This document shows, piece by piece, positions 814-51,340 of a stretch of 64,000 bases of DNA. The DNA is taken from NCBI GenBank assembly GCA_964016885.1, contig OZ024743.1, positions 118,482,001 through 118,546,000 on the forward strand. The letters run 5' to 3'. This DNA comes from Eledone cirrhosa (taxonomy: Eukaryota). Below the pieces are notes generated by a model, which was given only the letters and a program-made list of their open reading frames with translations, was not told the DNA's origin and did not search any database. Numbering within the stretch: the first letter of the stretch is position 1; each line of letters opens with the position of its first letter. The position numbers were made by a program, and so were the translations under genes.

Positions 814-917
<104 letters not shown>

Positions 918-1129
918 GTTAAAGTGTACATCTACATATGTATACGGAAGTATTAGTATGCATATAAATACACACATGTATACATATGTACATGTACTCA
1001 GCTTTTCACTAGACACTTTACAGTGAGTGTCAGCTAGTCTGTATGTAACCACACAGGCGGACCGGGTTTTAGAGTCATACGAGTTTTCAAGGAAACACAT
1101 TTCCTCTATTCTCCAGCGGGCCAGACAGG

Positions 1130-1174
1130 AATATTGGACTAGTTTCGATGTTATTACATCTCATCAGCAATATT
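1130..1174 (-). ncRNA. Type I hammerhead ribozyme, family A (second copy 1599-1643)
   Basis: AATATTG-CTGATGA-GATGT aata ACATC-GAAA-CTAG-TC-CAATATT: complete core, 7-bp stem I, 5-bp stem II, palindromic ACTAGT stem III, GUC cleavage triplet. Confidence 0.9.
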
Positions 1175-2081
1175 TACCCATCTTCCGGCTTCTCTGGAGA
1201 ATTGTAAAAGCACATATCGTTATATGCTTTTTCTATGAAAATTAGTAGTGGGTAGACTAATTTGCATAGAACGTGAGTCATTGTACGCACCGGTTCAGCG
1301 GAAACGATAAAAACAAATAACGAAACGAAATTAAATTTCGTTTCGCTTCTAACTCACTTTTGTATGACTGACGCTTAAACAATTAAGTTAAAGTGTACAT
1401 CTACATATGTATACGGAAGTATTAGTATGCATATAAATACACACATGTATACATATGTACATGTACTCAGCTTTTCACTAGACACTTTACAGTGAGTGTC
1501 AGCTAGTCTGTATGTAACCACACAGGCGGACCGGGTTTTAGAGTCATACGAGTTTTCAAGGAAACACATTTCCTCTATTCTCCAGAGGGCCAGACAGGAA
1601 TATTGGACTAGTTTCGATGTTATTACATCTCATCAGCAATATTTACCCATCTTCCGGCTTCTCTGGAGAATTGTAAAAGCACATATCGTTATATGCTTTT
1701 TCTATGAAAATTAGTAGTGGGTAGACTAATTTGCATAGAACATGAGTCATTGTACGCACCGGTTCAGCGGAAACGATAAAAACAAATAACGAAACGAAAT
1801 TAAATTTCGTTTCGCTTCTAACTCACTTTTGTATGACTGACGCTTAAACAATTAACTTAATTGTTTAACTTAATTGTTTAAGCGTCAGTCATACAGAAGT
1901 GAGTTAGAAGCGAAACGAAATTTAATTTCGTTTCGTTATTTGTTTTTATCGTTTCCGCTGAACCGGTGCGTACAATGACTCACGTTCTATGCAAATTAGT
2001 CTACCCACTACTAATTTTCATAGAAAAAGCATATAACGATATGTGCTTTTACAATTCTCCAGAGAAGCCGGAAGATGGGTA

Positions 2082-2126
2082 AATATTGCTGATGAGATGT
2101 AATAACATCGAAACTAGTCCAATATT
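2082..2126 (+). ncRNA. Type I hammerhead ribozyme, family A, inverted arm
   Basis: Same motif as 1130-1174, read directly on the plus strand. Confidence 0.9.
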
Positions 2127-2410
2127 CCTGTCTGGCCCTCTGGAGAATAGAGGAAATGTGTTTCCTTGAAAACTCGTATGACTCTAAAACCCGGTCCGCC
2201 TGTGTGGTTACATACAGACTAGCTGACACTCACTTTAAAGTGTCTAGTGAAAAGCTGAGTACATGTACATATGTATACATGGGTGTATTTATATGCATAC
2301 TAATACTTCCGTATACATATGTAGATGTACACTTTAACTTAATTGTTTAAGCGTCAGTCATACAAAAGTGAGTTAGAAGCGAAACGAAATTTAATTTCGT
2401 TTCGTTATTT

Positions 2411-2507
<97 letters not shown>

Positions 2508-2818: not shown

Positions 2819-2855
2819 GTAATATTAACAGAATAGATATTCTTGTGATCAATTA

Positions 2856-2922
2856 TATTTTATTATACATATTTCAGATGTACTGAGTTAGGTTTAACAG
2901 TACGTCCGCATCAGATAAAATA
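2856..2922 (-). ncRNA. Hammerhead ribozyme motif (one core substitution) at the 3' end of the Penelope-like element
   Basis: TATTTTAT-CTGATGC-GGACGTACTG...CAGTACATCT-GAAA-TATGTA-TA-ATAAAATA: perfect 8-bp stem I, 10-bp stem II with one mismatch, core A9 changed to C. Confidence 0.7.
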
Positions 2923-4786
2923 GGACGATGCATGACATACCCTGACATAGTAGATGGTTAAGATTCAGTCATGGTAGTGATTAACATATGACAAAACTCA
3001 ATATGTATACCCTAATATTGAGAACATAAGATAACATAATACAAACAATAGAGAGGGTGCGTGTAATATAGCTTAAAAAATACATTGCATCAATATAACA
3101 TATAAACATTTTTTTTTTATAAACTACTGAAGAAAAGGGAGGGAAAGAAAGCATAGAGGAAGAAACAGCTGATGTGATAATATATTTAATAGGTGGCTCG
3201 AAAAACAAATGAAAGATGATTAAAGAGAGAGAGAGAGAGAGAGAGACAAAGGGGAGTTATTTATGTTCAAGTTTATATACAACTTTCCATATACCCAAAT
3301 TAATATGGTTGGCCGTTAATATTCAAAATATTTAATCTAAGTTATTTCAGAGTAATGAATAATATTTTAGGTTTTAAAAGTTAATAGGTATTTGTATTAA
3401 TATTATAATTATGTTTAATTTTTTAAATTTAAATTTTATGAAAACAAATTTAAAGGATTTAGGAAACACAAGAAAGAAAATATATAATTCTTTTATACCC
3501 TCACGAAAGTAATCTTTACCAAAATTATTTATAATATTGACAACAGTTTATATAATACAATTCATAAAATAATTCTAGTTATAATTATTAAAGAATTTAT
3601 TGTTAAATAGTTTGAGTGCCTAAAAGATCAACCGGCCTTATAACTAAACTTAAAGAAATCTGAATTTTTAATTATATATATGTGTTGATCAAAAAATATA
3701 CAAGGATTATAGTTTATTATTTGTTTATAATTGAGCTGAAACCTTTCAAATATATATAATATAATACAATAATACAATATAGTAAATAGGTTACTGAAAA
3801 TATTGTTCACAAAATATATATAGTTAAAAAATATTGTTAAAAAATATTGTTAAAAAATTAATGTTTGATATCAATTATTTTCATTTAGTTGATATACACT
3901 ATAAACATATAAGTCAAAACTACATGAGTCCTAATGATAGGGGCTAGATACAAAGTAAATATACAAATAAAAGATAATGAATTGTTTGCGAAACTTAAAT
4001 ATGCCCAATATTAAAATATATTATAAATGTAATAGTATTTTAATATAGTAGACAAAAGATACATCTAAAATATTTTAGCGAATGTGATAGAAAGAGGAGC
4101 TAAGTATTTGAAAAAGCCGAAGGTAATCTAAATTTAATTAAAATAAAATAAGTTAAATTACTTTATATTATATTAAGTAAAAATCATTATATAAATTCGA
4201 ACTTCCAGGGAATATCAAACACTTATAACAATATAGAGTCATTTGAGTGTCTAAATTATTTATAAATGTAACTACGAGTAAGTTATTACACTAGATAAAG
4301 ATATTTGTACAACTATATAGAGATATTATTATAGGTATTAATGAAACGGTATACATTTAATAAATATATAATTATAATCATTATTAGTAATGCTATAATT
4401 GTAGTTTTACCTCCAGTTCAGTGGAGAGAGAGACCAATATTTGTTGACTATTATAGTTTGTTATATTTATACCTAGATATATATAAAAAAGCAAATCTAA
4501 CTTTCTGAGACCATAAAAACATACTCAAAATGAGTAAAATATGTAAAATATGCAAACGCATGAATGATCCAGAATTCAATTATAATCAGTAAATTTACAA
4601 GTTAAATATCCAAATTATATATTTAAAACAGAGACTGATAAATAAAGATCTGAATCAAAGTTATAAATATCCCAAAAAACCATAAGGTATGCATATTTAT
4701 CAAGTAAACAAGTTATCAAAAGAGTATCCTTCATTCTAACATTAATTCTATCATAAACGATTAGAAGGTAAAGCATTATTAAAGTT

Positions 4787-5893
4787 TTATAAACCGTTAT
4801 GACTTTTTAGGCCCAACAGTTGATAAGAGAGGTCAAAAATTAAGGTCTGATTGTTTAGTGTTTTTTCCTGATTTTTTTGCGAGGCTTGGAATGTAGACAA
4901 AGCTTTATGAAGGCAGTTTGAGAATAATTTACTTTTTTTGTTAATTAAGTTTTCATAATTAGTAATTATTAATAGGGTCTCCTTGGTGCAGAGGTTGCAA
5001 CTAGTTGATATAGATGAGTTCGTATATATTTTACTATTACAAAGCTTCGTCCAAAAGATCGAGTATTTTAAATTTTTGTCTTTTAATGACCAGATAAGTT
5101 GTGATAAAGAAGTCGAAGACTTCCTATTAAAATTCAAAAATGAGCATTTGTGATTTGCAAATCTCGATTTAAATGTCGAAGAAGTTGCTCCTATGTAGTT
5201 GTATGTGTTGTTATTTGTTTTTACGGTGCATTTATACAACAGATTTCTATCCAGACAATTATTTTGCAGAGGACAATCTGGTTTATTTCTACAATTACAT
5301 TTCGATTTATTATTATTTATATTAACACTATTATTAATAGCATTATGTTGATTTTGGTTTAGAATTATACTATTTAGTTTAGCAATGTTTTGGGCCATAT
5401 TCATAGTTGTAGAATAAGACAGTTTAATTGTGTGTCTATTAAATATGGAGTGGTATTTATGTTGACTAGGGAAGGAACTATCTAAAGCTTTAAAAGATAG
5501 ATTAGCTATTGGTGTTCTTACTGCTACAGAAGCAGGGGGGGGGGGCAAACCATATAACTGATTTAGTTCTGGTTGTATTCCTAGATTTATTCACAGTACA
5601 GGTGCTTGAATTATAATTATTAGAATTTTTAGAATTTCGTTTATATATGCCATTATTTTTATCAGCATTAAGACTCGGATAATAATTGTCTATATATTCT
5701 ATATTATTTTTATAACCTGCCTTTCTTAGCGCATCATTGTAATATCCTGCTTTTTCATCAAATATTGATTTATTGGCAGATATTCTAGTTATGCGTTTTT
5801 GTACACTTTTTACAATTGCGTTTTTCACAGATTTAGGGTGCTTAGAGTAGTAACTAACGTAATTTAAGTTTTCATTGGGCTTATGGGAAGGGT
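4787..5893 (-). pseudogene. Penelope-like polyprotein C-terminus: RT thumb, Cys-rich linker, GIY-YIG endonuclease (frameshifted, 5' truncated)
   Basis: KPNENLNYVSYYSKHP...IWFAPP, frameshift in the G-run near 5535-5546, then IFNRHTIKLSYS, CNCRNKPDCPLQNNC, LLY...YIGATSSTFKSRFANH, CNLCTKE...LIN. These motifs are typical of PLE GIY-YIG domains. Confidence 0.88.
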
Positions 5894-6021
5894 AACAAGA
5901 ATATCTATTTTGTTAATATTTTGAATTAATATTAATAACTCTGGAAAATCTTTCTGTTGAGTGCTTCCAATCTATTGTAAAACTCATTCTTTGATGTATT
6001 CATTGAACCTTGTTTAAATTT

Positions 6022-6049
<28 letters not shown>

Positions 6050-8965: not shown

Positions 8966-9003
<38 letters not shown>

Positions 9004-9008
<5 letters not shown>

Positions 9009-10332
9009 CAAATAACGAAACGAAATTAAATTTCGTTTCGTTTGTAACTCACTTTTGTATGACTGACGCTTAAACAATTAAGTTAAAAATGTACATCTAC
9101 ATATGCATACTGAAATACTAGTGTGTATATGAATACACACACGTATACATATGTAGGTGTACCAAGTCTTTCACTGGTCGCTTTGCAGTGAGCGGCCCAG
9201 CTATTCTGTATGTAAACACAGACAAACCGGTTTTTAGAGTCATACTGGTTTTTCGGGGGAACACCTTCCCCCTATTCTCCAGAAAGCCAGACAAGGAATA
9301 TTGAACTAGTTTCGTTGTTGTTACAACTCATCAGCAATATTTACCTATCTACCGGCCTTTCTGGAGAATTGTAAAAGCACATATCGTTATATGCTTTTTC
9401 TATGAAAATTAGTAGTGGGCAGACTAATTTGCATAGAGTGTGAGTACGCACCGGTTCAGCGGAGACGATAAAAACAAATAACGAAACGAAATTAAATTTC
9501 GTTTCGTTTGTAAGGTAAATAATTTGCATAGAGTGTGAGTACGCACCGGTTCAGCGGAGACGATAAAAACAAATAACGAAACGAAATTAAATTTCGTTTC
9601 GTTCGTAGGTAAATATTGCTGATGAGTTGTAACAACAACGAAACTAGTTCAATATTCCTTGTCTGGCTTTCTGGACAATAGGGGGAAGGTGTTCCCCCGA
9701 AAAACCAGTATGACTCTAAAAACCGGTTTGTCTGTGTTTACATACAGAATAGCTGGGCCGCTCACTGCAAAGCGACCAGTGAAAGACTTGGTACACCTAC
9801 ATATGTATACGTGTGTGTATTCATATACACACTAGTATTTCAGTATGCATATGTAGATGTACATTTTTAACTTAATTGTTTAAGCGTCAGTCATACAAAA
9901 GTGAGTTACAAACGAAACGAAATTTAATTTCGTTTCGTTATTTGTTTTTATCGTCTCCGCTGAACCGGTGCGTACTCACACTCTATGCAAATTAGTCTGC
10001 CCACTACTAATTTTCATAGAAAAAGCATATAACGATATGTGCTTTTACAATTCTCCAGAAAGGCCGGTAGATAGGTAAATATTGCTGATGAGTTGTAACA
10101 ACAACGAAACTAGTTCAATATTCCTTGTCTGGCTTTCTGGAGAATAGGGGGAAGGTGTTCCCCCGAAAAACCAGTATGACTCTAAAAACCGGTTTGTCTG
10201 TGTTTACATACAGAATAGCTGGGCCGCTCACTGCAAAGCGACCAGTGAAAGACTTGGTACACCTACATATGTATACGTGTGTGTATTCATATACACACTA
10301 GTATGCACATGTAGATGTACATTTTTAACTTA

Positions 10333-18474: not shown

Positions 18475-18480
<6 letters not shown>

Positions 18481-18972
18481 GAAAATTTTCGCTCTACATG
18501 GCTGAATACAATAAATATTATCTGAGTTTTTCGAATATTAATAATAACATTCGATTCGTTTGCTATTATGCAAACAAGCCTTTTATTTTGGATTTGGCAA
18601 AGCCGGCCATTTATCGCTCGTATACAGAAAACTGACATGCCAGTCTGCTGATATGCAAATCTGGCTGATCAGTGGATCTGCTAATATGCAGATCCGACTG
18701 ATCAGCCAGTCTGCTAATATGCAAATCAGGCCGATCAGTCACTGTGTATTTTTGAAAATAGCATATATTTTCACTAGCTCTGTCAGTTTGGCAGGTGAAC
18801 AGTGAGCTGTACTGATGAAGTGTGATACCCAGAAACATTAGTGTCGACAGTTCTGTTCGCATGCCAACACAAGAGTTCATTCTACTGATATGGTTATAAA
18901 ATTGAGGCTTGTTTGCATAATAGCAAACGAATCGAATGTTATTATTAATATTCGAAAAACTCAGATTACATT
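18475..18972 (+). mobile_element. Retrozyme-like family C: octamer repeats, HHR and inverted 3' end, inserted in (TA)n
   Basis: Inverted repeat 18524-18580 / 18906-18965, three 33-bp tandem units with ATGCARAT, and an HHR motif at 18804-18853. Confidence 0.75.
18804..18853 (+). ncRNA. Degenerate type I hammerhead ribozyme, family C
   Basis: GAGCTGTA-CTGATGA-AGTGTGATACCCA-GAAA-CATTAGTG-TC-GACAGTTC. Stem I is extended by TTGGCAGGTGAACAG / CTGTTCGCATGCCAA. Stem II is weak. Confidence 0.7.
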
Positions 18973-32082: not shown

Positions 32083-32811
32083 TAAACGGAAAAAATGAAA
32101 CGAAATTTCATTTCCCACTCTTAGTGCGGCTGTTACTTAAATATAAGTATGTACACGTACATACATATATGTATACAGACGTACAGTAGTATGTATATAT
32201 ATATACATACATGCACACACATATATATATGTACGTATGGATTCACCGAACATTTATTATAATGCTCGGTTTGTTTGTAAACAAACATCCCGTATTACGC
32301 CGTACAGTGTCTAGCAACCACCGTTGCTCGTTTGTTCAACACTGACAAAGGAACGCTGTACTAGTTTCAAGCTTATTAGCTATCGTCAGCAACGTATACC
32401 TTCCTGCCAGATTGTTGAACGTCGACTGAGTAGCCCAATTTGCATATCGAGTGGGTTAATTGGCCGGGTGCACCGAAAACGATAAACGGAAAAAAATGAA
32501 ACGAAATTTCATTTCCCACTCTTAGTACGGCTGTTACTTAAATATAAGTATGTACACGTACATATATATATGTATACAGACGTACAGTAGTATGTATATA
32601 TATATACATACATGCACATATATATATATATATATATATATGTACGTATGGATTCCCGGAACATTTATTATAATGCTCGGTGTGTTTGTAAACAAACATC
32701 CCGTATTACGCCGTAGTGTCCTGCAACCATCGTTGCTCGTTTGTTCAACACTGACAAAGGAACGCTGTACTAGTTTCAAGCTTATTAGCTATCGTCAGCA
32801 ACGTATACCTT

Positions 32812-32813
<2 letters not shown>
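32083..32813 (-). mobile_element. Retrozyme-like family B: about 1.8 tandem units in (TA)n
   Basis: Unit restarts at about 32484. HHRs at 32353-32395 and 32762-32804 (ACGTTG-CTGACGA-TAGCT aata AGCTT-GAAA-CTAG-TA-CAGCGT). Confidence 0.85.
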
Positions 32814-32873
<60 letters not shown>

Positions 32874-34310
32874 ATAAAGAAATACACAGATACATGCGGA
32901 CACATACATATACATGAATATATCCACATATATCCCTGAATTTGTGGTAGAGTATCCATTGAAGTGTAGTGACTGCTGGAAAGCTATCATTACTCAAACT
33001 TCTCGCCATCCTAGCCATCTCTTCTACGGCTTTGTGGTATTTTTTTCTTGGTTGTAAGAGGCTTAGGTCTGTTTCTTGACCGCTGTATCACGTGATTGAC
33101 ACCCCTCCGCCTTTCGGGATTCTATCTCGCGTCCTACGGATGTGTTTTGAAACTCTAAATGAGATATTCTCTTGATAAGTCGGCACACCTCACAAAAATA
33201 CTGTATCTCTGTGATGTAGTGTTTTTTCATAATATGCCACGAAACTACGTAGTCGAGGAGTAATTAAGGAATTTGGGTATGGTATATCTTATTAATCATA
33301 TCTAATGTTTCTTCTTTCTTTATAATGTATTATATATATATACATTGTCGTCATGGTGATCATCAGCATTACCGTCTTCATCATCATCACACCATTATTA
33401 TTATCATCACCTTCATTACCATAATATCACAATCATCGATAGCGGGAGGATACTCCTTCTAATACTCCTTATCATCATCGACGTAACAAGCCTTAGCTCG
33501 AGGTCGTTAACAAAGGCATTTATTTGCTAGAGTCTACATTTGTATTGCTTGCGATTTGGTAGAGCCGTGGGAACCTCGGATGGAATGTTTCGTCTGTACT
33601 TTGAGTTAAAATCGCGTCGAGGTCAATATTGCTTTTCATGATTTCCGCGTCTCTAAATACATTAAAACACTAGCTCCAAAATTGAAAGGCATTCACTTTC
33701 ACACACTGGCTTTATAAACATTCCAAGCTCTATGCGGGGAAGGTTTTGGATGAAACAATTCAAATTGTAAACTTTTATGTGGTCTGTATCTTGAACGCAG
33801 TGATGAGGAGTTCGTTCCAGTGCTAAATCTATTTAAATTGCTTGTTGAAAATAGTTTCAGGTAATTGTCATGATGAATTTCAAGGGTTAAAGTATAATTC
33901 AGGAGCAAGAGATGTCACAGAATGATTTGCCGTTCATATGGAATTTCTACCCCCCAAAAAGCAAGAAGAGCTATTTACGAATTGATTTCATTTTTGTCAT
34001 CATATATTTTCACAAATTAAAACGAAGCAACGAAGTTGAAGGGAACTTAAACATGATTTATGCTCTACACTTTCACGCCCTCCACCGTTGCCAAAGAAAC
34101 AAACAAATCAATCACATGTCTCTCATTGTAAACGAGAAGAAAAGAAATCACAATACTCTGAGATTCTATTAAACTTTAAATATGCATCAGTAATTTTAGA
34201 CTGTTAAGCTGTTACTTTTGTGTATCAAAAGACTATATTTATAAAAAAATTTAAATCCGCTAACATCTCCTATTGCTATCAAATTTGTCAAATTCCGTTA
34301 TATAAATAAT

Positions 34311-34494
34311 TTTCTATTTTTTGGCACAAGGCTAGCAAATTACAGGTGCATTACTGGTACTTTATTTTATCGACCCCGTAAGGATAAAATGCAAAGTTAA
34401 CCTCGGCGGGATTTGAACTCAGAATGGCAAGGGCCGTAACTCTGTGCGTAAAAGCATGGCGTCCGACCCTCTACAGATACTGCCAATCCACCGC
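34311..34494 (-). mobile_element. tRNA-derived SINE with TSD
   Basis: Family core on the minus strand, with TCCGTTATATAAATAAT duplicated on both sides. Confidence 0.8.
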
Positions 34495-35324
34495 AAATCC
34501 GTTATATAAATAATCCAAGTAAATTTATATGTATTGAAAGAATAACAGATGTTTAATATAATATTCATATTATATGTGAATTCAACTGGAAAATGGGGAC
34601 AACATTCTTAAATATGGTGAAAAGTGTGCAATCATTGGTCTTGATAAAACAAGGAATACAAGTAGTAATAGAACTTACTTGGGTAAAATAAATCGACGAT
34701 TTATGTCAATATAAAAGAATCAACTCATTTTATCAATATCATCTTCGTCATTGTTATCAGTATCGTAACTAAGCATCATGACAATCATCAACATAATTTT
34801 CTTGTTGCTGATTCTATTTACATTTCTATGAAAGGGACAAAGTGAGAGAAGCAATGTGAATGAGAGACAAATGAAAGGAAAAAAAGAAAAAGAGAAACAG
34901 TGAGAAATCTCAGAGAGGGAAGGGGGTAGATAGAAACAGGTTAGTATTTTCGTGGCACATAAGATTGATAGGCACGAAAACTGAGAGACTGAGCGGTTGT
35001 CAGCAAAAGCAGCATCACTCCTGTTTCCAACTAATGCCACTTGATCCAACCCTGGGGATGTTGCTTACACGTAGGGCCAATCCCAGGGGTAGAGTCTGGA
35101 AGGGAAACTGGAATGTACTGACAAAAATTTAAAAAAAGTAAATAACAAAATTGCAAATAAAAATATCGCTTTGCATATATATATTAAAATGACAGACATC
35201 ACATCTACATACATTCATAAATTAAACATATATTCATACATACAAACAATTGCATACACACACACACTCGCACACACATACTCACACGCACGCGCGCGCA
35301 TATATATATGTCTGTTTAAATATA

Positions 35325-35393
<69 letters not shown>

Positions 35394-35397
35394 TTAG

Positions 35398-35909
35398 ATG
35401 GAAAAAATGAAATTTCATTTCTCACTCTTAGTACGGCTGATACTTAAATACAAGTATGTATACATACATACATATATGTATACAGACGTACAGTAGTATG
35501 TATACAGATGTACACTAGTATGTATATACATACATGCACACATATATATATATATGTACGTATGGGTCAACCGAACATGTATTATAATGTTCGGTTTGTT
35601 TGTAATCAAACAGTCCGAATTAAGCCGTACAGTGTTCGGCAACCATCGTTGCCCTTTTGTTCAACACTGACAATGGAACGATGAACTAGTTTCTAGCTTA
35701 TTAGCTGTCATCAGCACCGTTTTCGGTACGCCCGGCCGACTAACTCATTCGATATGCAAATCAGGCTGCTCATCCGTTATTATGCATCAGGAAAGTATAT
35801 ACTTTCAAACGTTCAATCGATTGACAGGAAGATATACGGTGATGACAGCTAATAAGCTAGAAACTAGTTCATCGTTCCTTTGTCAGTGTTGAACAAAATG
35901 GCAACAATG
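35398..35909. mobile_element. Retrozyme-like family B, head-to-head, right arm cut short by a LINE fragment
   Basis: HHR at 35677-35721 (-), inversion at about 35722, and a second HHR at about 35836-35877 (+) that lacks CTG of the core. Confidence 0.8.
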
Positions 35910-36700
35910 TCCCTATATCGCTTGGCCAGACACTTAGCGTAGCTGTTACCTGGTATGCTTAAGACTGACATCCCTCTATAAGTGCAGCAAGATCTCTTGT
36001 TTTCTTTTTTGAGAATTAGGATTATCATTCGTGATTGCTATTGCTTAGTTGCCTTTCCAAAGATCTAGGTCACTCGGCACACGCGGGTCAACCAGAGAAT
36101 ACCAGATTTAACATCTCGGGTCAAATTTCACCCTCTCCACATTCGCTCTATTTAATTGCTAATGTGACCTCAGCCTCCGTGAGGTTAGTCATCGCTACCA
36201 GATGCATTACGATTACATCAGAAGATGCTGTTGTGACCGGGTTTAGATTCTCAGCCAAGTAATCTCTCCATTTCGGGAGGACGCACCTCTCTGTAACGCG
36301 AACACCAGATACGTTCCTGATAGCAGGCGTAGAGGAGGAGCTAATGGATGTTCTGCCAGAATACTTTGGTTGCCGATCGTGAATCGGTTTCTAGCTTAAC
36401 CCCGAATACCTTCCATGCTCTAACTTTGGACAACTTTTCTGTCTTTTCTGCTATGTTTCGCACCTTCTCGTACCGCTTGTGTAAAATGGAGGACTTTCAT
36501 TTATTCATTGGAAACTTATTTAGTCATTAAACCAAAGGATCCCCTACCAAAATCAACCCGACCCTAGATCAAGCCGCTTTACCCACAGCTTTTATCAGCT
36601 GATGTAGAAACTGTCGAGATGAACAGACTCCACTCTGTTTCAACGTCCCCAGTTTGCTCCGGGAGTTCTCTGAATTTGTATACAATGATATCACTAATCC
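35910..36700 (-). mobile_element. Degenerate RTE-like LINE fragment (linker and RT N-terminus)
   Basis: Minus-strand remnants such as WRDYLAENLNP and WLTRVCRV, then KKKQE..CTYRG.SVLSIPG. Many stops and frameshifts. Confidence 0.5.
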
Positions 36701-37874
36701 TGTTCCTGATATACTTACCTAGTTATGTAGCTAGGAGTAGGCGATTAAATGCAACTTCTAAAAAAGCTTAGTCTTCGTGAGCCTGAGGAAAGTACCAAAT
36801 TGGTGACGGGTGCTAATGAGACTAACAAAACAGTGCAATATGGCTGAAACATGTAAAGACACCCATACCGCACTGTCATTCACGTTAGTTAGAAGGGATT
36901 TTTCGAATAATATATTGCAGTTTCCACCTAAGGCAGTAAGAACTGGCGATACACCTTCCAACCGTCCTGGGATGCGTGGCTGAAAGCACAAAGTTTACGT
37001 ATCATGAAAACCCAGAGAGGGTCTGGAAACACACTTTGACAATTGGTAAATAGAACCTTACAATCCTTACAGACTAGGAGCAGGAACCAGTGCAGAAAAC
37101 TAGATGCTTCTGGCTATATGTATAGTCGAGGTTCCCACCAACTTTTTGATGGAAGATGGAAACTCGAATATTCAGATATGGAACAAGAAGAGACTGCACA
37201 GGGGATTGTGGGCATACTCACAAGACCCCCCCCCCCCCCACACACACACACACCGTCTGTCAGAATGTCTTAAGAACTGGATCACATGGGGAGGGAGTAT
37301 TTGAAACATGAAGCTTAGAAACTTAGGGTTAAAAGTGGGTGGGGAAAATTTATCGCCAATGAGAGAACCCGAATAGAGACCTTTGCTTGATGAAGTTATT
37401 TCAGTGTTAGATGTAGTTAAGACTGAGTCATATACCCTAATGCAAAGGTTCTGTTGATATCAGTAGATTACTGGGCCAAATCAAGTTATCTTAGATTCTT
37501 TAAAAAATACTCGTACGAATTAAATACAATAAAGTTTCAGTCCAAAACAAAAGCAAGCTATTTCAAATTATATATTTTTGAAATAAAAAAAACATTTGAT
37601 CTCAGTCGAAAAAGCTTTTTTTTCTTTAAATTCTATATTTCACTGTTAGCTGTTGTAATATATTTTGAGTGGATAGACAATTGAAACTGCAAAGTCAAAA
37701 TACAAAAGATGCAAAATATGAAGAGTTTCTTACCTTTCTCTGAAATCACAAACTCAAGGGGAAAATAGTACCTTGCAAAATAATATACCTCGTAGTAAAA
37801 TAAGTAGTAAGGAATGAATTGAGAAGCTTAGTGACTGAGAAAGCAATATTTGTATCCATTATATATAAACATAG

Positions 37875-38057
37875 GCGGTGGATTGGCAGTATCGGTAGAG
37901 AGTCGGAGGCCATGCTTTCCAGCATAGTTACGCCCCTTTACGATCTGAGTTCAAATCCCGCCGAGGTTGACTTTGCCTTTCATCCTTACGGGGTCCATAA
38001 AATAAAGTACCAGTAATGCACTGGGTAATTGCTGGCCTTGTGCCTAAAGTAGAAACA
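37875..38057 (+). mobile_element. tRNA-derived SINE with 17-bp TSD
   Basis: ATTATATATAAACATAG at 37858-37874 and 38058-38074, with A/B-box-like motifs and the family core. Confidence 0.85.
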
Positions 38058-38078
38058 ATTATATATAAACATAGATAG

Positions 38079-38127
<49 letters not shown>

Positions 38128-38253
38128 CATACACACACACAAGTTTGTGTGTATTAGCCTTGGTTTGGGTACAGAAAGAATTTTGTCTACAGTTTTTTAT
38201 TGCCAGGTCAACGGCCACAGCTCTTTTCAACAACGCCAAATAGTAACGCTCCT

Positions 38254-38316
<63 letters not shown>

Positions 38317-38409
38317 GAAGAGAGAAAGAGGGAGGGACACATAGAGTAAGAAATGTGTGTGTGTTTGGTACACGTCTATCTATCTATCTATCTGTCTATT
38401 TATCTCCAA

Positions 38410-38814
38410 CAGGGGGCTCACACCTGCAGCCCGCGAACTACTTATCTGGGGCCCGTGGTAGAACCAATATTTCATATCGCATTATAACTGGTGAAAATAA
38501 GGAGGCGAGCTGGTGGAATCGTTAGCACATCTGGCGAAATGCTTAACGGTACTTCTTCCATTTTTACGTTCTGAGTTCAAATTCCGCCGATCTCAACTTT
38601 GCCTTACATCCTTTTGGGGTCGATGAATTAAGTACCAGTTGTGTATTAGGATCGATGCAATCGACTGAACCCTAAACCGCAAATGTCATGCCTTGTTCCT
38701 ATAGTAGAAATGATTATAACTGGTGAAAATGTTCACCCACTACCGCGTTTGGTCCACTGTGCCTCTCCTCCAGGACGTAAAAGCCCTTTTGTGTCCTTGA
38801 GTTTGAGACCCCTC
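38410..38814. mobile_element. Possible hAT-type MITE interrupted by a SINE
   Basis: Ends CAGGGGGCTCACAC and GTTTGAGACCCCT are imperfect inverted repeats resembling hAT TIRs. No clear 8-bp TSD. Confidence 0.45.
38499..38712 (+). mobile_element. tRNA-derived SINE with 18-bp TSD
   Basis: ATTATAACTGGTGAAAAT at 38481-38498 and 38713-38730, GAGTTCAAATTCC B-box-like motif and related core. Confidence 0.85.
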
Positions 38815-38815
38815 T

Positions 38816-38862
<47 letters not shown>

Positions 38863-38894
38863 TTTACTTTTTTTCTGTCTCTGAACTACGCCCA

Positions 38895-39116
38895 TACTGG
38901 AGCATCACCTTGGTAAGTTATGGCGACGTCAACAAACCAACAAGCATTAGTGGGAGGGCAAACACAAACGCAAAGACACACACAGACATATATACATATA
39001 TACGACGGGCTTCTTTTAGTTTCGGTCTATCAAATCCACTCACAGGGCTTTGGTCTGCTCGGGCAGTGGGACTGAACCCGCAATTATGTGGTTGGGAAAC
39101 AAGCTTCTTGTCACAC

Positions 39117-39118
<2 letters not shown>
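38895..39118 (-). mobile_element. Second tRNA-derived SINE family (internally deleted)
   Basis: Minus strand AAGAAGCTTGTTTCCCAACCAC..GGGTTCAGTCCCACTG (B-box-like) followed by a body with a (TG)-rich tract. Confidence 0.6.
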
Positions 39119-39215
<97 letters not shown>

Positions 39216-39403
39216 TTATACACACACATATATATATATATATGTATAGTAAGTACATTTTTCGAAACAGCGAGCGGGTTTGAAATTATTATAAATGTAA
39301 GCTATCGCCGTATTTTGACTAAAGAAATTAAAGAAATTATTTAGCCTGATAGTGGGGTTAAGAATCCTCGGAGAAATGGAAAAAGATGAGTATGTATGTA
39401 GAT

Positions 39404-39454
<51 letters not shown>

Positions 39455-40320
39455 AATAAACGTGCTGCGTGGTTGCTAATGGGTTACATATGAATAAAGT
39501 TAGTCCTTCATCAGTGATCTTCCAACCATCATTGGTATTTCATCGCTTTAAAGACCATATACCTCCGGTCGGTGCGAGCAACGGGTAAAAAAAGTCGTTG
39601 GGACACGTAAATAAAGGGGACACGAGAGTGTAAACAAACAAAGATGGTGAAGCAACGAAAAGTGAGGAAGAAAGAATCAAGTCCCAAATTTCCATGAATA
39701 TAAGTTCGGTGAACTCGTGAATGAGAGAGAATAAAGACCATATATATATATAGGTAGATTTATATATATATAGTATTGCTTTTTGCTGAACTCCTTATTG
39801 TAGAGTTTTTTTCGGAATGTTTTTGACTGTTATTTCTTGTAAACGAACATTCGTCTCATTCTGACGTCACCAGCCCTGTCTTTACACATGTGCGTTTTAG
39901 TTTTCATAAACACGCTTGATGGTGAACTGGCCTGCTTTTTAATTCCCTTTTTGGCATATTAATCAGTGAGAAATTTTGGTTATCGAGTTGAGCTCTGCTA
40001 AGGATCGAATTCCAACCGTGACCATCTCCACTGAAAGTTTTCGTGAAATAGTCTTCAAGACTATTCAGAGCATTTGAAGTTTTTCCAAATTGAAGGATGA
40101 GTATTTTAAACTATATTTTATCATGAGTTAAGGCTCTATTGATTTTTCCCTGGATTTCACTAAATTCTGTGGATGAATCTATATATTGATTCTTTTTGAG
40201 TTGAGTTTGAATTATTTTCCCACATCTTACGTTAACTATTTTTTCCCATTTTGACGCTATAGTCACTTATATATTATGGAATACTGTTGGCTTTTTGCTA
40301 CAATATTTTCTATACCTTTC

Positions 40321-40382
<62 letters not shown>

Positions 40383-40439
40383 ATTTATATGTATGTATTT
40401 ATATTTATATATATATATGTATGTAGATGTATGTATGTA

Positions 40440-40474
<35 letters not shown>

Positions 40475-40478
<4 letters not shown>

Positions 40479-40585
40479 GGAAAAAATGAAACGAAATTTC
40501 ATTACTCACTCTTAGTACGGCTGTTACTTAAATATAAGTATGTATACGTACATACATACATGTATACAGACGTACAGTAGTAGTA

Positions 40586-40652
<67 letters not shown>

Positions 40653-41745
40653 CATGCACACATATATATATATATATGTACGTACGGATTCACCGAACAT
40701 TTATTATAATGCTCGGTGTGTTTGTAAACAAACATCCCAAATTAACCCTACAGTGTCTAGCAACCATCGTTGCTCATTTGTTCAACACTGACAAAGGAAC
40801 GCTGTATTAGTTTCAAGCTTATTAGCTATCGTCAGCAACGTATACTTTCCTGCGAGATCGTTGAACGTCTGAAAGTATATATTTTCCTTATGCATATTAA
40901 CGGCTGAGCAGCCTAATTTGCATATCGAGTGAGTTAATCTGCCGGGGTACCGAAAACGATAAACGGAAAAAATGAAACGAAATTTCATTTCTCACTCTTA
41001 GTACGGCTGTTACTTAAATATAAGTATGTATACGTACATACATACATGTATACAGACGTACAGTAGTATGTATATATCTATATATATATATATATATACA
41101 TACATGCACACATATATATATGTACGTATGGATTCACCGAACATTTATTATAATGCTCGGTGTGTTTGTAAACAAACATCCCGAATTAAGCCGCACAGTG
41201 TCTAGCAACCATCGTTGCTCATTTGTTCAACACTGATAAAGGAACGCAGTACTAGTTTCAAGCTTATTAGCTATCGTCAGCAACGTATACCTTCCTGCCA
41301 GATGGTTGAACGTCTGAAAGTATATAGATTCCTTATGCATATTAACGGCTGAGCAGCCTAATTTGCATATCGAATGAGTTAATCGGCCGGGGTAGCGAAA
41401 ACGATAAACGGAAAAAATGAAACGAAATTTTATTTCTCACTCGTAGTAGGGCTGTTACTTAAATATAAGTATGTGTACGTACATACATACATGTATACAG
41501 ACGTTAATATGAATCAGGAAAGTATATACTTTCAGACATTCAACCATCTGGCAGGAAGGTATACGTTGCTGACGATAGCTAATAAGCTTGAAAGTAGTAC
41601 AGCGTTCCTTTGTCAGTGTTGAACAAATGAGCAACGATGGTTGCTAGACACTGCACGGCTTAATTCGGGATGTTTGTTTACAAACACACCGAGCTTATAA
41701 TAAATGTTCGGTGAATCCATACGTACATATATATGTGTGCATGTA
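40475..41745. mobile_element. Retrozyme-like family B: about 2.2 tandem units plus an inverted arm
   Basis: Units restart at about 40961 and 41407; inversion at about 41503. HHRs at 40799-40841 (-), 41244-41286 (-) and 41563-41605 (+), each with a point change. Confidence 0.85.
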
Positions 41746-41759
41746 TATATATATATATA

Positions 41760-42532
41760 TATGAAAAACAAGGGGAAGAAGAATACTGCATGGTTGCACA
41801 TGGATTACATATTATAAAATTAGTTCCTCATCTTTGATTTTGCCAACCATCATTGGTATTTCATCTCATTAAAAACCAAATAGAGGTCAGTCGAGAGAAA
41901 AAGTGTAACTGACAGAGAGGGTGAAAGAAGGTAAGAGAAACAGAGAGAACGTGTGAGCAGTGAGAGAGAAAGAGAGAAACAGATAATCGCAGTTTAGGTA
42001 AATATATATGAAAAACAAGGGGAAGAATAATACTGCATGGTTGCACATGGATTACATATTAAAAAATTAGTCCCTCATCAGTGATTTTGCCAACCATCAT
42101 TGGTATTTCATCGCATTAAAAATCAGATACCTTAGGTTGGTGCGAGCAAGAACTAAAATAATCTATTGGGACAAGTGATACGCGTAAAGCGAGTGAGACA
42201 AGTAAACAACAGAAGGAAAAGCAAACCGAAGGTTGGAAAACAGCAAGCCACATGGTAGTTATCCGATCAGCATAAACTGGATGAATTTCATGAGCGGTCA
42301 GAGAAGCAGACCGTACGCCGTGAGTGCGGTGTGAGAAAGAAGGAACCCCACTAGTAGCGAACGGGAGGAAGTGAGAAGGGGAGAACCAGAGAGTGAGTGA
42401 GCGGAAGTGCGAGGAAGAGGTCAGTCGAGAGAAAAAGTGTAACTGACAGAGAGGGTGAAAGAAGGTAAGAGAAACAGAGAGTACAGGGGAGCAGTGAGAG
42501 AGAAAGAGAGAAACAGATAATCGCAGTTTAGA
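41760..42532 (-). repeat. Family D repeat with partial tandem duplication
   Basis: 41760-41875 is repeated at 42007-42120, and 41883-41997 is repeated at 42417-42530. Confidence 0.75.
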
Positions 42533-42542
42533 TATATACATA

Positions 42543-42615
<73 letters not shown>

Positions 42616-45600
42616 CTACATACATATTTACATACATTACGTATGTATATAGCTATGCATTTATACATTTGTATATATACATGCATTTATATTTAAGTGT
42701 GTAAGGCTGTTGATATGATCTATGTCTTCTTTTTTTGGTAAGGAGAACATTTTTGTCACCAGATTTTATTACCTAGGGAGATTAAATACCACACTTCTGG
42801 CTGAAAGCTGACCAGGTTCTCAACCTCATCAAACACTAACGCCGGCCTGTGTGTGTATGTATGTGTGTGTGTAATGTATGTGTATATATGTGTGTGTGTA
42901 TGTATGTATATGTGTGTATGTTCACCACCATTGCTTCTTCTTGTCATTTCTGTTGAAGTAGTCCTTACTTTCATTCTCTTTGATTTCTTTTGATTTTCTT
43001 TCACCTCCCTAGGGACCTCGTTGACAAGCTTCTTTAATTTATTTTCTTTGTTTTCTTCATTCAAATCACTGACTGTCTAAGAGACGTACAACTATGACTT
43101 ATAAAACTTACCAAACTAAAGGGGCTTCTAGCGCCCTCAAAGTTTCAAACGCCCCTTACTGCATAACGCCCCCCTAACGTCCCCTTACTGCATAACGCCC
43201 CACTGCATATGCCCCCCGTTGAGAACCCTTACTACCCTAATGGGAAGACTCCAATGCACATGTTGGCATTGGCTAACTGATATGGAAAAGAGTTATTGGA
43301 AAGAACGGCGATCCCAAACTAAATACGAAAAAAGAAGCCTTATTAGACTTCATTTCTAGTAATTGGTCTCAATTATAAACACTTTCCATTGCATATAATT
43401 TGCCTTTCAGGCCTTATTAAGTTTGAAAATCTATTAAAGGCGTTTACATTTTTTTCTCCATTTATAGAGAAATTCGTTTTTTCTGGAATGCTTACATGCC
43501 TAAATATTAAATATGAGTACATTCGTGTAGTCTCAGCTATCCACACTATACAGATATAACTTTACCGTACACTCAGGTTGCTAGGGCACTTATATATATT
43601 TATATTTACACGTGCACACACACACATAGACATCCGCACATACGCATATATATATACATGTATGTATTTTTCTTTGTATATATGCATGTATGTATGTATG
43701 CATGTATCTTTGTATGTATGTATGTATGTATACGTGTATGTATGTTCTTCTGGTTTTATAATTTCACTGTATGATTGTATGTATGTATGTATATGTATGC
43801 AATAATTCTCCAAATATTTCAACAATATAAGATTTTAAAATGGTGATACCCCAGCAGAACATTGGCTCGTCAGTTTGAACAAGTGCAAGAGAAAACGACA
43901 AAAATATTCTCTGATATTCATAAGCCATTGCTAGACGATATTGACTAGATATCAGAAAATTCATAGCCTACTTAAAACATTCTCACCCACATTTAGCGTA
44001 GAGACTTGCGATGTCTATAAAAACACATAAAAATGGTTCAAAACTTACAACCAAAACATTCATATATTTTTCTGGGCACAGATGCCAAATGACAGATGCA
44101 GCCTTGATACTAAACAATATTCCCCAAAATAATAAAAGAAATGCCTCTGACACATATTACTCGCTCTAGGTCAATCGTGAACGATCTGACCTACGATAAA
44201 ATAGTACATGGTTTCAGTGATTTTAGGAGTTTGTACAACTACATTTTCTAATGTATCATTTCTCCCTTGAAGGTGAAAATGGAAGTATTCCAGCTGTGAC
44301 GCTGCCGTCTTTGTAGAAGTATATAAGGAATAATTTATCTAACGTGTCCTTGTTTGTTTTGTTTTTTTAATATGGCAATACGTGATTTGAAATCAATAAG
44401 CCTGATATCGAACGACTGCATAGAGGACATCTCGTTGGCATTTATACTTCATATTTAAATGGCACATGTGAAGTACGTCCTTTTTAAAAACATCTCTGTC
44501 TATAAAAATCTATCGGATTTATTTCATTTTTCTATACACTAAATTAAAATTTCTTTGTCGCAGGAAATGTTAGTTAATATGCTAAGCAGAGGAAAAGAAA
44601 AAAATGTTAAATATTTTAAAATTGCGAATATCAAATTATTCCATGCGCCCTAGCCAACTTGCAAGTTTCGCTTCATTTAAAATACATAGACTATTTTAGA
44701 ATTATTAGCTGGCAGAATGAATTTACCTCAGAATTATTTCCCATCATATTTTCGCTATTAGCCATGTTATTACATATCTGTATGATTTCTGCTGGCGGGC
44801 TAGGAAGCGTGGGGGTCACATATTCTCTAACAGTATGCAATCTTTCGTTTTCATTCTATTCTTAACTACCCTTTCGCGTATTTACGAATAGCATTGTACC
44901 TCTTGCTTTCAAATTGTAAGGCTTTCTCTTGTTTAAGAAGATAGGCTTCCAGTGATTTCATCGCTTCCTACTATTTTCCTCAGCTTTTCTTCTCTCTCCT
45001 TTTGTTTTTAATAATGGAAAACATTACGAGATTAAGAAAGAAAGGGGATAAAGGAAAGGAGAGATAGTACAGATAGTACAGAAAGTACAGGAAGACCAAT
45101 AAAATGAAAATCACACCATTCCTTCTCTTGGTACATAGAAGTGAAAATTATATAAATTATTAAAATAACCTTTAACCACAACGAAAACATTTATATTTCG
45201 CGGCTAACATCCAGGTAACTTGTGAATGGTCATTATAAAGAATTTGTTGTTGTTGTTGTTATTGTTTAGCTTCATATCAAACTTCATCGATGAGAGCTAT
45301 GGCAAACATTATTTTGGCTATAAGCATTAACTTCTAATGCTGAGTTCAAGTATTGGGCCACGTATCTTAGAGTGGAATGAGTATTATCTACATCAGTCGA
45401 CTATTAGAATCACCAAAATCAGTTCCAACTCCACCATTAGAACAAGAATAACATATCTTCCATCGCCTGTGGCAAACAAATAGTGTATTTTAAAATAATG
45501 TGACCCATTCGGAAAAGTTTAAGTGAATGTGTATCTCGGTAACTTATTCCCAGATGCGCAAGCAATTAGAAGGCGGGGTTGAAATCCAACGAGTAATGTT

Positions 45601-46908
45601 CCAAATTCGAGAACGCAATATTAATAAAACATATGTGAGATTAGGTTTTATGTATCTGATTTGATTAATTTAAATTACATAAAAAAGTGAATGATACGAG
45701 ATAGTCTGGTTGATATAGGCCTGAGTTGGTAAAGCAATGACTGGTAAATATTGAATATTGGACCTTTGAGAAGGTACACAGAGTTACAGGACAAAATGAC
45801 ACAAATGTGATAGCCCATGCACTTTTGCAGCAATGCCTTTGTGTCATAACTCAAAATAACGATACCTTAAATAGTTGTATAAGTATTAACATATTTAATG
45901 CAATAAGTATTAAAAATCTCGATAGAAATAGTTTTTCCCGTAGGGAAATGAATAAAATTAGTGAAAGTCTACATTTAATTTTAAATATTAAAAAAATATA
46001 TATATACTATACAGCTTATACGTAATAGCCTTTAGCCGTATTCTGTCCTCATCTATGAAGCATGAAAAATCATTAGATAAATTACTGTCGACATATTTAA
46101 TGCAGTGACCATTAAAATGGCTGAAATGAAGCCAAAAACCTAAAAGAAAAAACAATTAATAATCAATGACTAATATTGTTTTTTGCTCTGATTATATACG
46201 GAACAAAACTTCGGGCATGGTTGGATCTACCACTATTGAAGATATTTTTCGATCAATTGCAAAATAATCACAATTACAATTACTTAATGTTTTATCTTTC
46301 AAATTATCAGATTTTAAGTAATTTTAATAGTATAACGTTCACTGCACTTTCAGTCATGTATAATTGTTCAATGCATAGTAAGCATTTCTAAAATTGCCGA
46401 TTTTGTGTTTATCTGTAAATAAAGCATGGAGAAGAGTGGGGACTGGGAGACGTAAATCGGTTTAAAGTTTTCAATGAATTATCTGCCAGATCACCAATGA
46501 GGAAAATTTCCTTTTCAGAAGTAGGCTCAAATAACAAAACCAAAAGATATGAAGAAATATGAGCAGATGATTCTTCACACATTTGATATTAGAAGATATG
46601 GTATGAATGTTGTATAATCTTAGTAACATAAATTACTGATCTAAAACCAATCTTACTTTGACCGCCCATCGCCACTAAAAATCCAATAATTTTATCTTAA
46701 CGTGTCTTATCCTTGCATATTTTTCAATATGTAAACTTCTCTATGTCATTTATTTATTTATATAATTCGTAGGCTATTTGTAAATTTGTTTATATGTATA
46801 TATAAACCAACTGACACTATAATCCGAACAAGTAAGTGACATAAAACACACCAACAGATAGGATTAGTTGTACATACAGCCATACATGCACACACACACA
46901 CACACACA

Positions 46909-47014
<106 letters not shown>

Positions 47015-47057
47015 CACACACACATATATACATATATATATATGTATGTATGTATGC

Positions 47058-47108
<51 letters not shown>

Positions 47109-47868
47109 TATATATATATATATGAAATATATGTATGTATATATATGTATCTATCTCTCTCTCTCTATATATATATATATAGAGAGAGAGGGAGATGTAT
47201 ATACATACATACATGCATGCACGCATACATACTTACATACATACAAACTCCTACTCGTAAAAATATATATTCATACGCATAACCATATCTATAAATAGAA
47301 AACATTGTATAAAAATCATCATATATATATATGAAATACATGAGCCTTTGCAAATATGTATATATGTGTGTGTACATCTGTTTATATATTTCGAAGTTTA
47401 AATATGTATAGATATAACGCATAGAAAATTTCACACATCTAAACATATATATAAAGGATACAACCATACGTGTGTTTATATATGAACATATAAATATGAA
47501 TTTGTTTAGGCTCGTTCGCTTTTCAAAGACATTGCGTAAAAAGTAAAATAAGTTTGATATAAAAGGAAGACCAGTGAAGCGAATGACACCTGTCGGTTTT
47601 CTCGGGAAATACTTGCTTTCACCATTACTGCATAAGTAAACTATATTATCAATGTTGGGACACTAGTATTGATGTTGGGAATTGATTCTTTGCAAATCTT
47701 GTTAGAACCAAAGAAAACTATGTTGGTGTGTTTGTGTATGTGTGTGTGTGGTCATCTGCGTTTGTGTGAGTGTATGTGGGTATTATAATTACACTACTGT
47801 GTCACAACTTTAACCTTTTAATACGATTTTCCCCATATTTTTATATGAGTCCTATATATATATATATA

Positions 47869-50800: not shown

Positions 50801-50950
50801 CGTAAAACGTATCCTTAAGTTCGTCTGGCAACCCCGATTATGGTGCGGAAGCTGATATTATTGTGGTAATTGTTTTATTCAGGACTAGTCTGAGTTTAAT
50901 GGTTCTTGCATTTACCCTGTACACTGAGATTACTTTATCTACCCACTTGT
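47869..50950 (-). mobile_element. 5'-truncated RTE-clade LINE
   Basis: APE remnant, RT and C-terminal domain, a 3' UTR ending in a (TGA)n tail, with (TA)n at both ends. Confidence 0.9.
48165..50950 (-). pseudogene. RTE ORF (APE-RT with Cys/His finger insert), disrupted
   Basis: IIAGDFNGHVG (APE), NYRGMKL, QFGFVPGRGTTDA, FVDLEKAFDRV, GVHQGSVLSPLLF, LLYADDL, GLKVNMTKTK, then WPCSVC..C..WVHKRC..FTCSSC and FCYLGD. Confidence 0.9.
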
Positions 50951-50964
50951 CATATATATATATA

Positions 50965-51166
50965 TAAGTAAGTATGTTTTGAAACAGTGAGGAGGTTTGA
51001 AATTAGAAAATAGAATAGGTTTCACCGTATTTTTTACTAAAGAAATTTTAGTCTGATAATGGGGTTTAGAACCTTCAGATAAATGTAAAAAGATGAGTAT
51101 TGGCGTACATGGGAGTCGAACCCACATCTTTGGTTATCCAGACCACTGTGGTACCATTACACCAAC
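50965..51166 (-). mobile_element. tRNA-headed short repeat in (TA)n (headless copy at 39248-39393)
   Basis: Minus strand TGGTGTAATGG (A box) and GGTTCGACTCC (B box), then a body homologous to 39248-39393. Confidence 0.6.
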
Positions 51167-51194
51167 ATATCATATATATATATATATATATATA

Positions 51195-51255
51195 TATCTG
51201 ATGAGAACGCAGATATTGTGCCATGATGATATTTGTTTTTGAAATGCGCATAATA
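51195..51255 (+). ncRNA. Hammerhead ribozyme motif in a short pLTR-like remnant within (TA)n
   Basis: TAT-CTGATGA-GAACGCAGATATT...GATATTTGTTTTT-GAAA-TGCGCA-TA-ATA. Palindromic ATGCGCAT stem III; stem I is only 3 bp. Confidence 0.6.

Positions 51256-51290: not shown

Positions 51291-51340
<50 letters not shown>

Follow-up and report, generated by a model that had tools for sequence, protein, structure and literature searches.

The stretch of DNA analyzed here, called the window below, is 64,000 nt long, and it raises the question of whether each of its hammerhead ribozyme units carries the promoter for its own transcript and, if so, of what kind. The initial annotation had proposed that the units are U6-type transcription units, in which an octamer, a PSE and a TATA-like box lie upstream of the ribozyme, and an oligo-T run fixes the 3′ end of a Pol III transcript. 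To answer the question, the units, their insert ends and the conservation and folding of the upstream block were compared between the families.

Hammerhead-bearing units of the window

The window consists of AT-rich animal DNA with many microsatellites and broken LINEs, and its repeat features suggest that the host may be an octopod cephalopod. The latter include LINE-type elements at 11128-15881 (+) and 48211-50572 (−), which match Pfam RVT_1 with E-values of 3e-10 and 6e-31. The ribozyme units are tandem, 414-543 nt long, and inserted in (TA)n, and each of them contains one type I hammerhead (Table 1). They belong to families A, B and C, which are about 50% identical. The A1 pair at 912..1860 (−) has its 3′ end at an endpoint designated Y, in (TA)n, while a second endpoint was designated X. 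In the part of the B2 array from 56071 to 62314 (−) the unit range of 523-543 nt is due to microsatellite length, and one variant near X is shared by the copies at 57484 and 59624, four units apart, which hints at a higher-order repeat. An inverted pair of B-family 3′ fragments without a hammerhead was also found at 24185-24616, with both of its ends near X.

Table 1. Positions of the units, the upstream block and the neighboring element in the window
Feature	Position	Strand	Details
Two tandem 469-nt family A1 units	912..1860	−	TRF period 469, 99% matches; junction
Type I hammerhead	1130..1174	−	Helix I, core 1137-1167, palindromic ACUAGU helix III
Predicted transcription start	1192..1196	−	Inferred from geometry, TATA beginning at −30
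ATATA box	1221..1225	−	Offset 43 from first base of octamer; inside hairpin 1206-1231
TAATTTTCATA, the initially proposed PSE	1234..1244	−	3′ arm of hairpin 1232-1270; inverted degenerate octamer
Segment between octamer and pairing arm	1245..1259	−	Moderately conserved
TATGCAAAT	1260..1268	−	Octamer 1260-1267; invariant in 9/9 aligned copies of A, B, C
T5 run	1309..1313	−	Just 5′ of endpoint X
Strong hairpin between endpoints Y and X	1319..1347	−	Fold z −3.8
Inverted A1 unit with ~80-nt extension to endpoint X in (TA)n	1861..2418	+	blastn, junctions
Broken Penelope-like element	2820..6025	−	Frames 4787-5590, 5502-5912; flanked by (TA)n
Family A2 inverted/tandem locus	9002..10331	.	Internal T5; left end X, right end Y
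Family C unit (approximate limits)	18480..18972	+	Hammerhead at 18812
Three 33-nt octamer-bearing repeats of family C	18647-18745	+	
Four family B1/B3 loci in 32090..52400	32090-32814, 35404-35909, 40481-41763, 51347-52400	.	
Family B2 array	56071..62861	.	12 hammerheads on −, 1 inverted on +; units 523-543 nt

The hammerhead core pattern matched the window 27 times, while 0.64 matches were expected. The total of 29 hammerheads used below consists of these 27 matches, a copy at 35833 whose core starts with GTGA, and the family C hammerhead (18812), while degenerate hammerhead-like motifs at 737 and 2914 were excluded. Cleavage is predicted after GUC at 1137 (−). Comparison of eight copies showed covariation, with two-sided changes in four of the seven pairs of helix I and in three of the five pairs of helix II. 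Helix III is the short palindrome ACUAGU in families A and B, and is longer in C. A short palindromic helix III has been described as the form that works in dimers (PMC4209133). In families B and C the splice-acceptor-like sequence TGGCAG, which is not there in A, stands just before helix I (56434-56440 (−), and B1 and C counterparts); the Penelope element of Drosophila has an intron whose end is at helix I (PMC4209133).

The Rfam model HH9 gave 38.6 bits for two A2 copies, which is under its gathering threshold of 52. The sole Rfam match in the window at the gathering threshold was tRNA-like (51101-51171 (−), 33.6 bits, gathering 29); it adjoins (TA)n and is possibly a SINE head or a pseudogene. 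Spliceosomal snRNAs were absent among the matches listed (150 of 372 for the window). The miRNA matches at the E-value level were below threshold and were rejected as palindrome or microsatellite artifacts. An isolated, degenerate hammerhead-like motif at 706-737 (−), located between (AG)n and (TC)n and with helix I unpaired, was unrelated to families A-C by blastn.

The units are non-coding, and the frames of at least 120 amino acids that overlap them are low-complexity microsatellite read-outs. The folding of three monomers in comparison with shuffled sequences gave z values of −10.6 (A1), −9.6 (B2) and −4.1 (B1), which means that all three are strongly self-paired. To judge from the tandem type I hammerhead units, the lack of an encoded protein and the highly self-paired monomer, the units are non-LTR retrozymes, i.e., non-autonomous Penelope-like elements, which are a known kind of element. 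A preprint derives non-LTR retrozymes from Penelope pseudo-LTRs (Li et al. bioRxiv 10.64898/2026.07.22.740005). Like the non-LTR retrozymes described previously (Cervera and de la Pena 2020, PMC7229834), the units of the window are tandem, non-coding and low in GC, with a type I hammerhead in each unit, a short palindromic helix III and strongly self-paired monomers. They differ in their length, which is 414-543 nt versus about 220-390 nt (PMC7229834; 10.64898/2026.07.22.740005). The text of PMC7229834 contains 0 occurrences of the word “octamer” and describes neither an octamer nor a promoter.

The octamer and the ATATA box are conserved in sequence and spacing

The positions of the octamer at 1260-1267 (−), TAATTTTCATA at 1234-1244, GAAAAAGCATATA next to it, and the hammerhead core at 1137-1167 were confirmed, and the B2 and C strings were found exactly as the initial annotation gave them. 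A perfect octamer is present in 24 of the 29 hammerhead copies, and the other five are 5′-truncated downstream of the octamer position. The window contains 29 occurrences of ATGCAAAT versus 6.7 expected, and none of 100 shuffles reached 29, although these copies are repeats and not independent. In the nine-copy alignment TATGCAAAT is the longest invariant run, exceeding every run of the ribozyme core. The region from the octamer to the hammerhead is 41-55% identical between families, and 39 of 121 other gapless upstream columns are identical in A1, B2 and C. At that identity, a run of nine arose in 0.3% of 50,000 simulations, which is a rough figure: the simulation treats sites as independent, the alignment was anchored on the same word, the families share an ancestor, and the base for conservation is three families in one window. 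The octamer is more conserved than its neighboring bases, and the core of the initial observation holds.

The distance from the end of the octamer to CTGA is 92 nt in A, 80 nt in B2, 71-80 nt in B1/B3 and 85 nt in C, with 48 nt in one deleted copy. Hence, the earlier estimate that the octamer lies 74-86 nt before the ribozyme holds if measured to helix I, while to CTGA the range is 71-92 nt apart from the deleted copy. The next three-way invariant run after TATGCAAAT is ATATA, which starts at offset 43 in A, 44 in B2 and 45 in C. The match to a TATA box is weak (TATAAC, TATATAC and TATATTT). In family C the octamer is tripled in the 33-nt repeats, which contain two perfect octamers and one ATGCAGAT. 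The data show that the octamer and ATATA are kept in sequence and in spacing beyond their neighbors. This block is real, and its partial precedent is newt satellite 2; a block of octamer and ATATA in retrozymes or Penelope elements was undescribed in the literature searched, which lay outside subscription journals, Repbase and Dfam.

Folding of the conserved block

An octamer hairpin followed by a second hairpin holding ATATA was predicted in A, B2 and C. The z value of the block fold was −7.65 in A, −2.55 in B2 and −0.44 in C, where the centroid of the octamer stem is mostly open. Two-sided change was observed in one of the 11 pairs of the octamer stem and in none of the nine pairs of TATGCAAAT. 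Variation in the TATGCAAAT pairs is confined to the partner arm, and 85% of the cells of the octamer stem stay paired. The place of ATATA in its hairpin is the 5′ arm in A, the center of a palindrome in B2, and the loop or 3′ arm in C.

The fact that the octamer arm is invariant while its partner varies means that the sequence is conserved, and not only the pairing. This and the distance kept between the octamer and ATATA suggest a constraint on sequence and spacing as expected for DNA-binding factors, superimposed on general selection for a folded RNA. Selection at the RNA level is itself certain, because both motifs lie in predicted stems and the whole monomers are highly structured, and it might account for the octamer and ATATA motifs.

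The proposed PSE is the pairing arm of the octamer

TAATTTTCATA, which had been named as the PSE, is the reverse complement of TATGCAAATTA with one mismatch. Its counterparts vary, with TAATATGCATA in B1, TTATTATGCATC in B3 and none in C. The spacer from TAATTTTCATA to TATA is 9 nt in A and 7 nt in B2, while a PSE-TATA spacer of 15-19 bp has been described, in which changes of 5 bp inactivate U6 (PMC7949045). TAATTTTCATA was therefore rejected as a PSE, given that it is the pairing arm of the octamer, varies, does not occur in C, and stands at the wrong distance from TATA. The only place for a correctly spaced PSE would be the segment at 1245..1259, abutting the octamer. This segment keeps an invariant G, C and CA in all eight aligned copies, and the tripled 33-nt repeat of family C spans the octamer together with the counterpart of the segment. 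A molluscan PSE was not found in the literature searched.

Insert ends and oligo-T runs

Pol III stops at T runs (PMC3499247), and the initial annotation had attributed the fixed 3′ end of the units to such a run. Four of five monomers are free of runs of four or more T between the hammerhead and the terminal run. This agrees with the earlier description of the sense strand in A1 and B2, while the several runs reported for the opposite strand are present in A1 (four) and not in B2 (one). The depletion of T runs was not significant when compared with dinucleotide shuffles (P 0.34 for A1, 0.82 for B2, and 0.29-0.55 for the other three), and marginal when compared with mononucleotide shuffles (P 0.02-0.35). 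Runs of four T also occur within the A block itself, at offsets 27 and 59. The X ends of family B that have a T6 or T7 run show that the insert stops 5-10 nt past the run in five of five cases, and the two B-family ends at 24 kb have no run of four or more T. In family A, endpoint X is located within T5 or at its end, and in A2 it coincides with the end of the run. A second class of ends, Y, is located about 80 nt upstream in A, and the Y ends of A1 have no T run. The T run of B2 is the 3′ arm of a hairpin. The internal T5 of A2, which had already been noted as a complication, is present and counts against the Pol III terminator model. Altogether, the B ends beyond the run, the Y class without a T run, and the role of the B run as a hairpin arm speak against the oligo-T as a terminator responsible for the fixed 3′ end.

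Arrays of up to 12 units in tandem were inserted with the upstream block and every T run included, which means that the RNA template crossed T5-T7 repeatedly. A Pol III transcript does not agree with multi-unit inserts, which need RNA crossing a T5-T7 run per unit, and a separate Pol III monomer, though conceivable, could not be the transposition template.

Junction mapping showed that 16 of the 17 mapped insert ends abut (TA)n, and that six of the eight inverted loci have two unequal ends. Tandem and inverted inserts, a tail at one end and a microsatellite target are the features of non-autonomous Penelope-like elements. In vitro, two internal starts of reverse transcription bound a “tail” in an anole Penelope element (PMC11167929), and the Penelope tail is described as 30-40 nt long. 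The distance between X and Y in family A, about 80 nt, is longer than this tail. By analogy, the insert ends fit Penelope-type internal reverse-transcription starts, and two such starts would explain the fixed ends without a terminator. The hairpin predicted between Y and X could be a candidate landmark for the start of reverse transcription.

A candidate kind of mobilizing element

The remnant at 2820..6025 has CxCX5C, GIY-YIG-like YIG, CxxC and CxH motifs, which are the endonuclease signature of the Hydra clade, and toward its 3′ end, around 2860-2914, it contains a hammerhead that is degenerate (core CTGATGC...GAAA). Elements of the Hydra clade insert in (TA)n and carry hammerheads (Craig et al. 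2021, PMC8557442). The units of the window are similar to these elements (PMC8557442) in their tandem and inverted 5′-truncated inserts, tail at one end, (TA)n target and hammerhead in the repeat, and the remnant with CxCX5C, CxxC and CxH lies 2 kb away. Unlike these elements, the units are non-coding, lack blastn similarity to the remnant, and have in family A a tail of about 80 nt. Because blastn gave no match between this one remnant and the units of the 64-kb window, the remnant is a candidate only for the kind of mobilizer, and its motifs suggest that an element of this kind could mobilize the units. Pfam gave no family for the Penelope-like frames, and a search for homologs of these frames among longer proteins yielded none among 688 candidates, which is weak evidence. 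There is no convincing octamer or ATATA ahead of the hammerhead of the remnant; ATGTTAAT, found 65 nt before it with two mismatches and no ATATA, was rejected as a chance match.

Scans of public contigs

Six public sequencing runs of unspecified kind, from four studies and with four organism labels, contain 0.28-0.60 of the words sampled from the window; no RNA run was among those listed, and this result is neutral as to the readings discussed below. The combined octamer and hammerhead pattern was found at no fewer than 120 and at 7 loci in viral contigs, and the filter for helices I and II was passed by none of the 120 and none of the 7 matches listed, so that these were regarded as chance matches. 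In metagenome contigs at least 104 loci have an octamer 65-95 nt before the hammerhead pattern, and 40 of the 104 listed pass the helix filter. Among the matches listed, the gaps take values throughout 65-95 nt, 37 of 118 motifs come from two families, and none of 89 has ATATA at the position seen in the window or the inverted arm. Since the octamer was a condition of the scan, its matches do not bear on association, and the metagenome matches were not used as support. Blastn of these matches against the window gave two short low-complexity matches only, and the family-specific core pattern had no matches in viral and prokaryote genome contigs; no relative of families A-C was found in the public contigs scanned.

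Two hammerhead families from metagenomes, L129/L137 with 24 and L128/L132 with 13 clustered motifs, show ATGCAAAT roughly 77-93 nt ahead of the core. They were selected by the scan for the octamer, and have no ATATA box. In the single locus L133 (−), 75 nt before the hammerhead, an octamer is followed after about 30 nt by an inverted ATGCATAA arm and further on by TATATA. This layout is loosely like the block of the window, while its spacing differs.

Discussion

Because the octamer and ATATA are conserved beyond their neighbors, in sequence and in spacing, a promoter in each unit is plausible, while the U6 type, the named PSE and the oligo-T terminator of the original proposal are not upheld. 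We see about an even chance that each unit contains a compact Pol II-type promoter made of the octamer and TATA, which gives read-through multimers. In such a unit an octamer for a POU factor and, about 35 nt downstream of it, a weak TATA box would act as the promoter. If TATA is placed at −30, the octamer would occupy about −73 to −66, and transcription would start near 1194 (−), about 27 nt before the ribozyme core, and continue across the T run into the units that follow. The multimer would be cut by paired hammerheads into monomers able to circularize, and a Penelope-like reverse transcriptase/endonuclease acting in trans would copy the multimeric or circular RNA into (TA)n. Reverse transcription starting at the two internal sites X and Y would then give tandem and inverted inserts with fixed ends. 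The promoter sequence would also be present in the RNA, so it would be folded into hairpins by changes of the partner arm only.

Promoters of immunoglobulin and histone H2B genes are Pol II promoters with an octamer and a TATA box. In mouse Nos2, a minimal Pol II promoter consists of an octamer and TATA, and an octamer a few tens of bases upstream of TATA suffices there (PMC3891534). Unlike the units, whose promoter is a predicted one, Nos2 is a vertebrate protein-coding gene and its octamer, at −62 to −44, is about 10 nt closer (PMC3891534). The pseudo-LTR of Penelope holds a promoter that drives the next copy, and the only characterized Penelope promoter is TATA-less (PMC2377424). The predicted promoter of the units has a similar placement. 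The missing TATA of Penelope speaks against the proposed promoter, as do the weak TATA match of the units, the lack of a convincing octamer and ATATA ahead of the hammerhead of the remnant, the lack of a blastn match between remnant and units, the 89 metagenome matches without ATATA at that position or the inverted arm, and the length of the tail in family A.

The octamer upstream of a TATA-like box is shared with the type 3 Pol III promoters of U6, 7SK and H1, the last of which has all its elements packed in 100 bp. The promoter of newt satellite 2 reportedly contains an octamer as well. Satellite 2 (Coats et al. 1994) is cited as having an snRNA-type but Pol II promoter (PMC2220036), hence the precedent invoked in the initial annotation stands as to the snRNA type, while the polymerase cited is Pol II. 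The units are similar to satellite 2 in being hammerhead-bearing tandem repeats with an internal promoter, putative here; in contrast to it they have a conserved TATA-like box and at most a putative PSE.

The predicted hairpins also allow an explanation without a promoter, in which the octamer stem and ATATA hairpin serve as elements of the folded RNA of the retrozyme, their sequence is read by a Penelope-like protein or a host RNA-binding protein, and transcripts arise by host-unit read-through. Both motifs are located in predicted stems, with strong folding in A (z −7.65), which argues against a promoter and for such an RNA-level motif, as do the prediction of both hairpins in A, B2 and C, the large share of octamer-stem cells that stay paired, and the folding of monomers far better than shuffles. 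However, the invariant word coincides exactly with the canonical POU octamer, its distance to ATATA is kept while the place in the hairpin shifts, and in family C the octamer stem is weak and the octamer is multiplied, which makes this explanation of the motifs rather unlikely. Another explanation is a SNAPc promoter with a cryptic PSE at 1245-1259 and its counterparts, driving Pol II or leaky Pol III. A PSE ending 15-19 nt before TATA (PMC7949045) would land on this segment, which has the invariant positions described above and is included in the 33-nt repeat of C; moreover, a compact layout is known from the human H1 promoter (PMC7949045), and newt satellite 2 is cited as snRNA-type Pol II (PMC2220036). 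On the other hand, this PSE would touch the octamer or overlap with it, the segment takes part in base pairing in B and is unlike the predicted PSE of Schistosoma japonicum (PMC5460494), as judged by eye and unscored, and PSE with TATA usually means Pol III (PMC7949045), which is disfavored by the T runs. Hence, we regard a SNAPc promoter of this kind as quite improbable. The broader suggestion of an invertebrate retrozyme lineage with its own ultra-compact octamer promoter, possibly SNAPc-dependent through a PSE abutting the octamer, in which the DNA sites double as hairpin arms of the circular RNA, is in our estimate unlikely.

The U6-type Pol III unit proposed initially, with TAATTTTCATA as PSE, TATA, and an oligo-T terminator fixing the 3′ end, has the order of octamer, motif, TATA-like box and T run just as it was described. 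The absence of long T runs from the hammerhead to the terminal run in most monomers, and the coincidence of endpoint X with the end of T5 in A2, would also fit it. However, the octamer, present upstream in 24 of 29 copies, is much closer than a usual distal element and would lie where a PSE normally begins. The motif taken for the PSE is the variable pairing arm of the octamer, missing in C, and stands 7-9 nt from TATA instead of 15-19 nt (PMC7949045). The insert ends ignore the T run, being located past T6/T7 in family B or lacking such a run at 24 kb, the B2 run forms the arm of a hairpin, a T5 lies inside A2, the T depletion is not significant in dinucleotide shuffles, and inserts of up to 12 units need an RNA that crosses each run. 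We consider this model very improbable.

Returning to the compact octamer and TATA promoter, the start of transcription and the cause of the insert ends are separate questions, which were merged in the initial annotation. A two-motif block with fixed spacing over three diverged families leads to a predicted start at about 1194 (−). Apart from the cited newt and schistosome cases, the retrozyme promoter is undefined in the literature surveyed, and animal retrozymes can be very abundant circular RNAs. If the broader suggestion of an ultra-compact promoter is true, every unit would bring along its own copy of the promoter, and this case and newt satellite 2 would point to POU/snRNA-type transcription as an engine that recurs among animal retrozymes. 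Thousands of such units, whose copies were counted in the 64-kb window only, could be scattered POU-responsive promoters if they are active.
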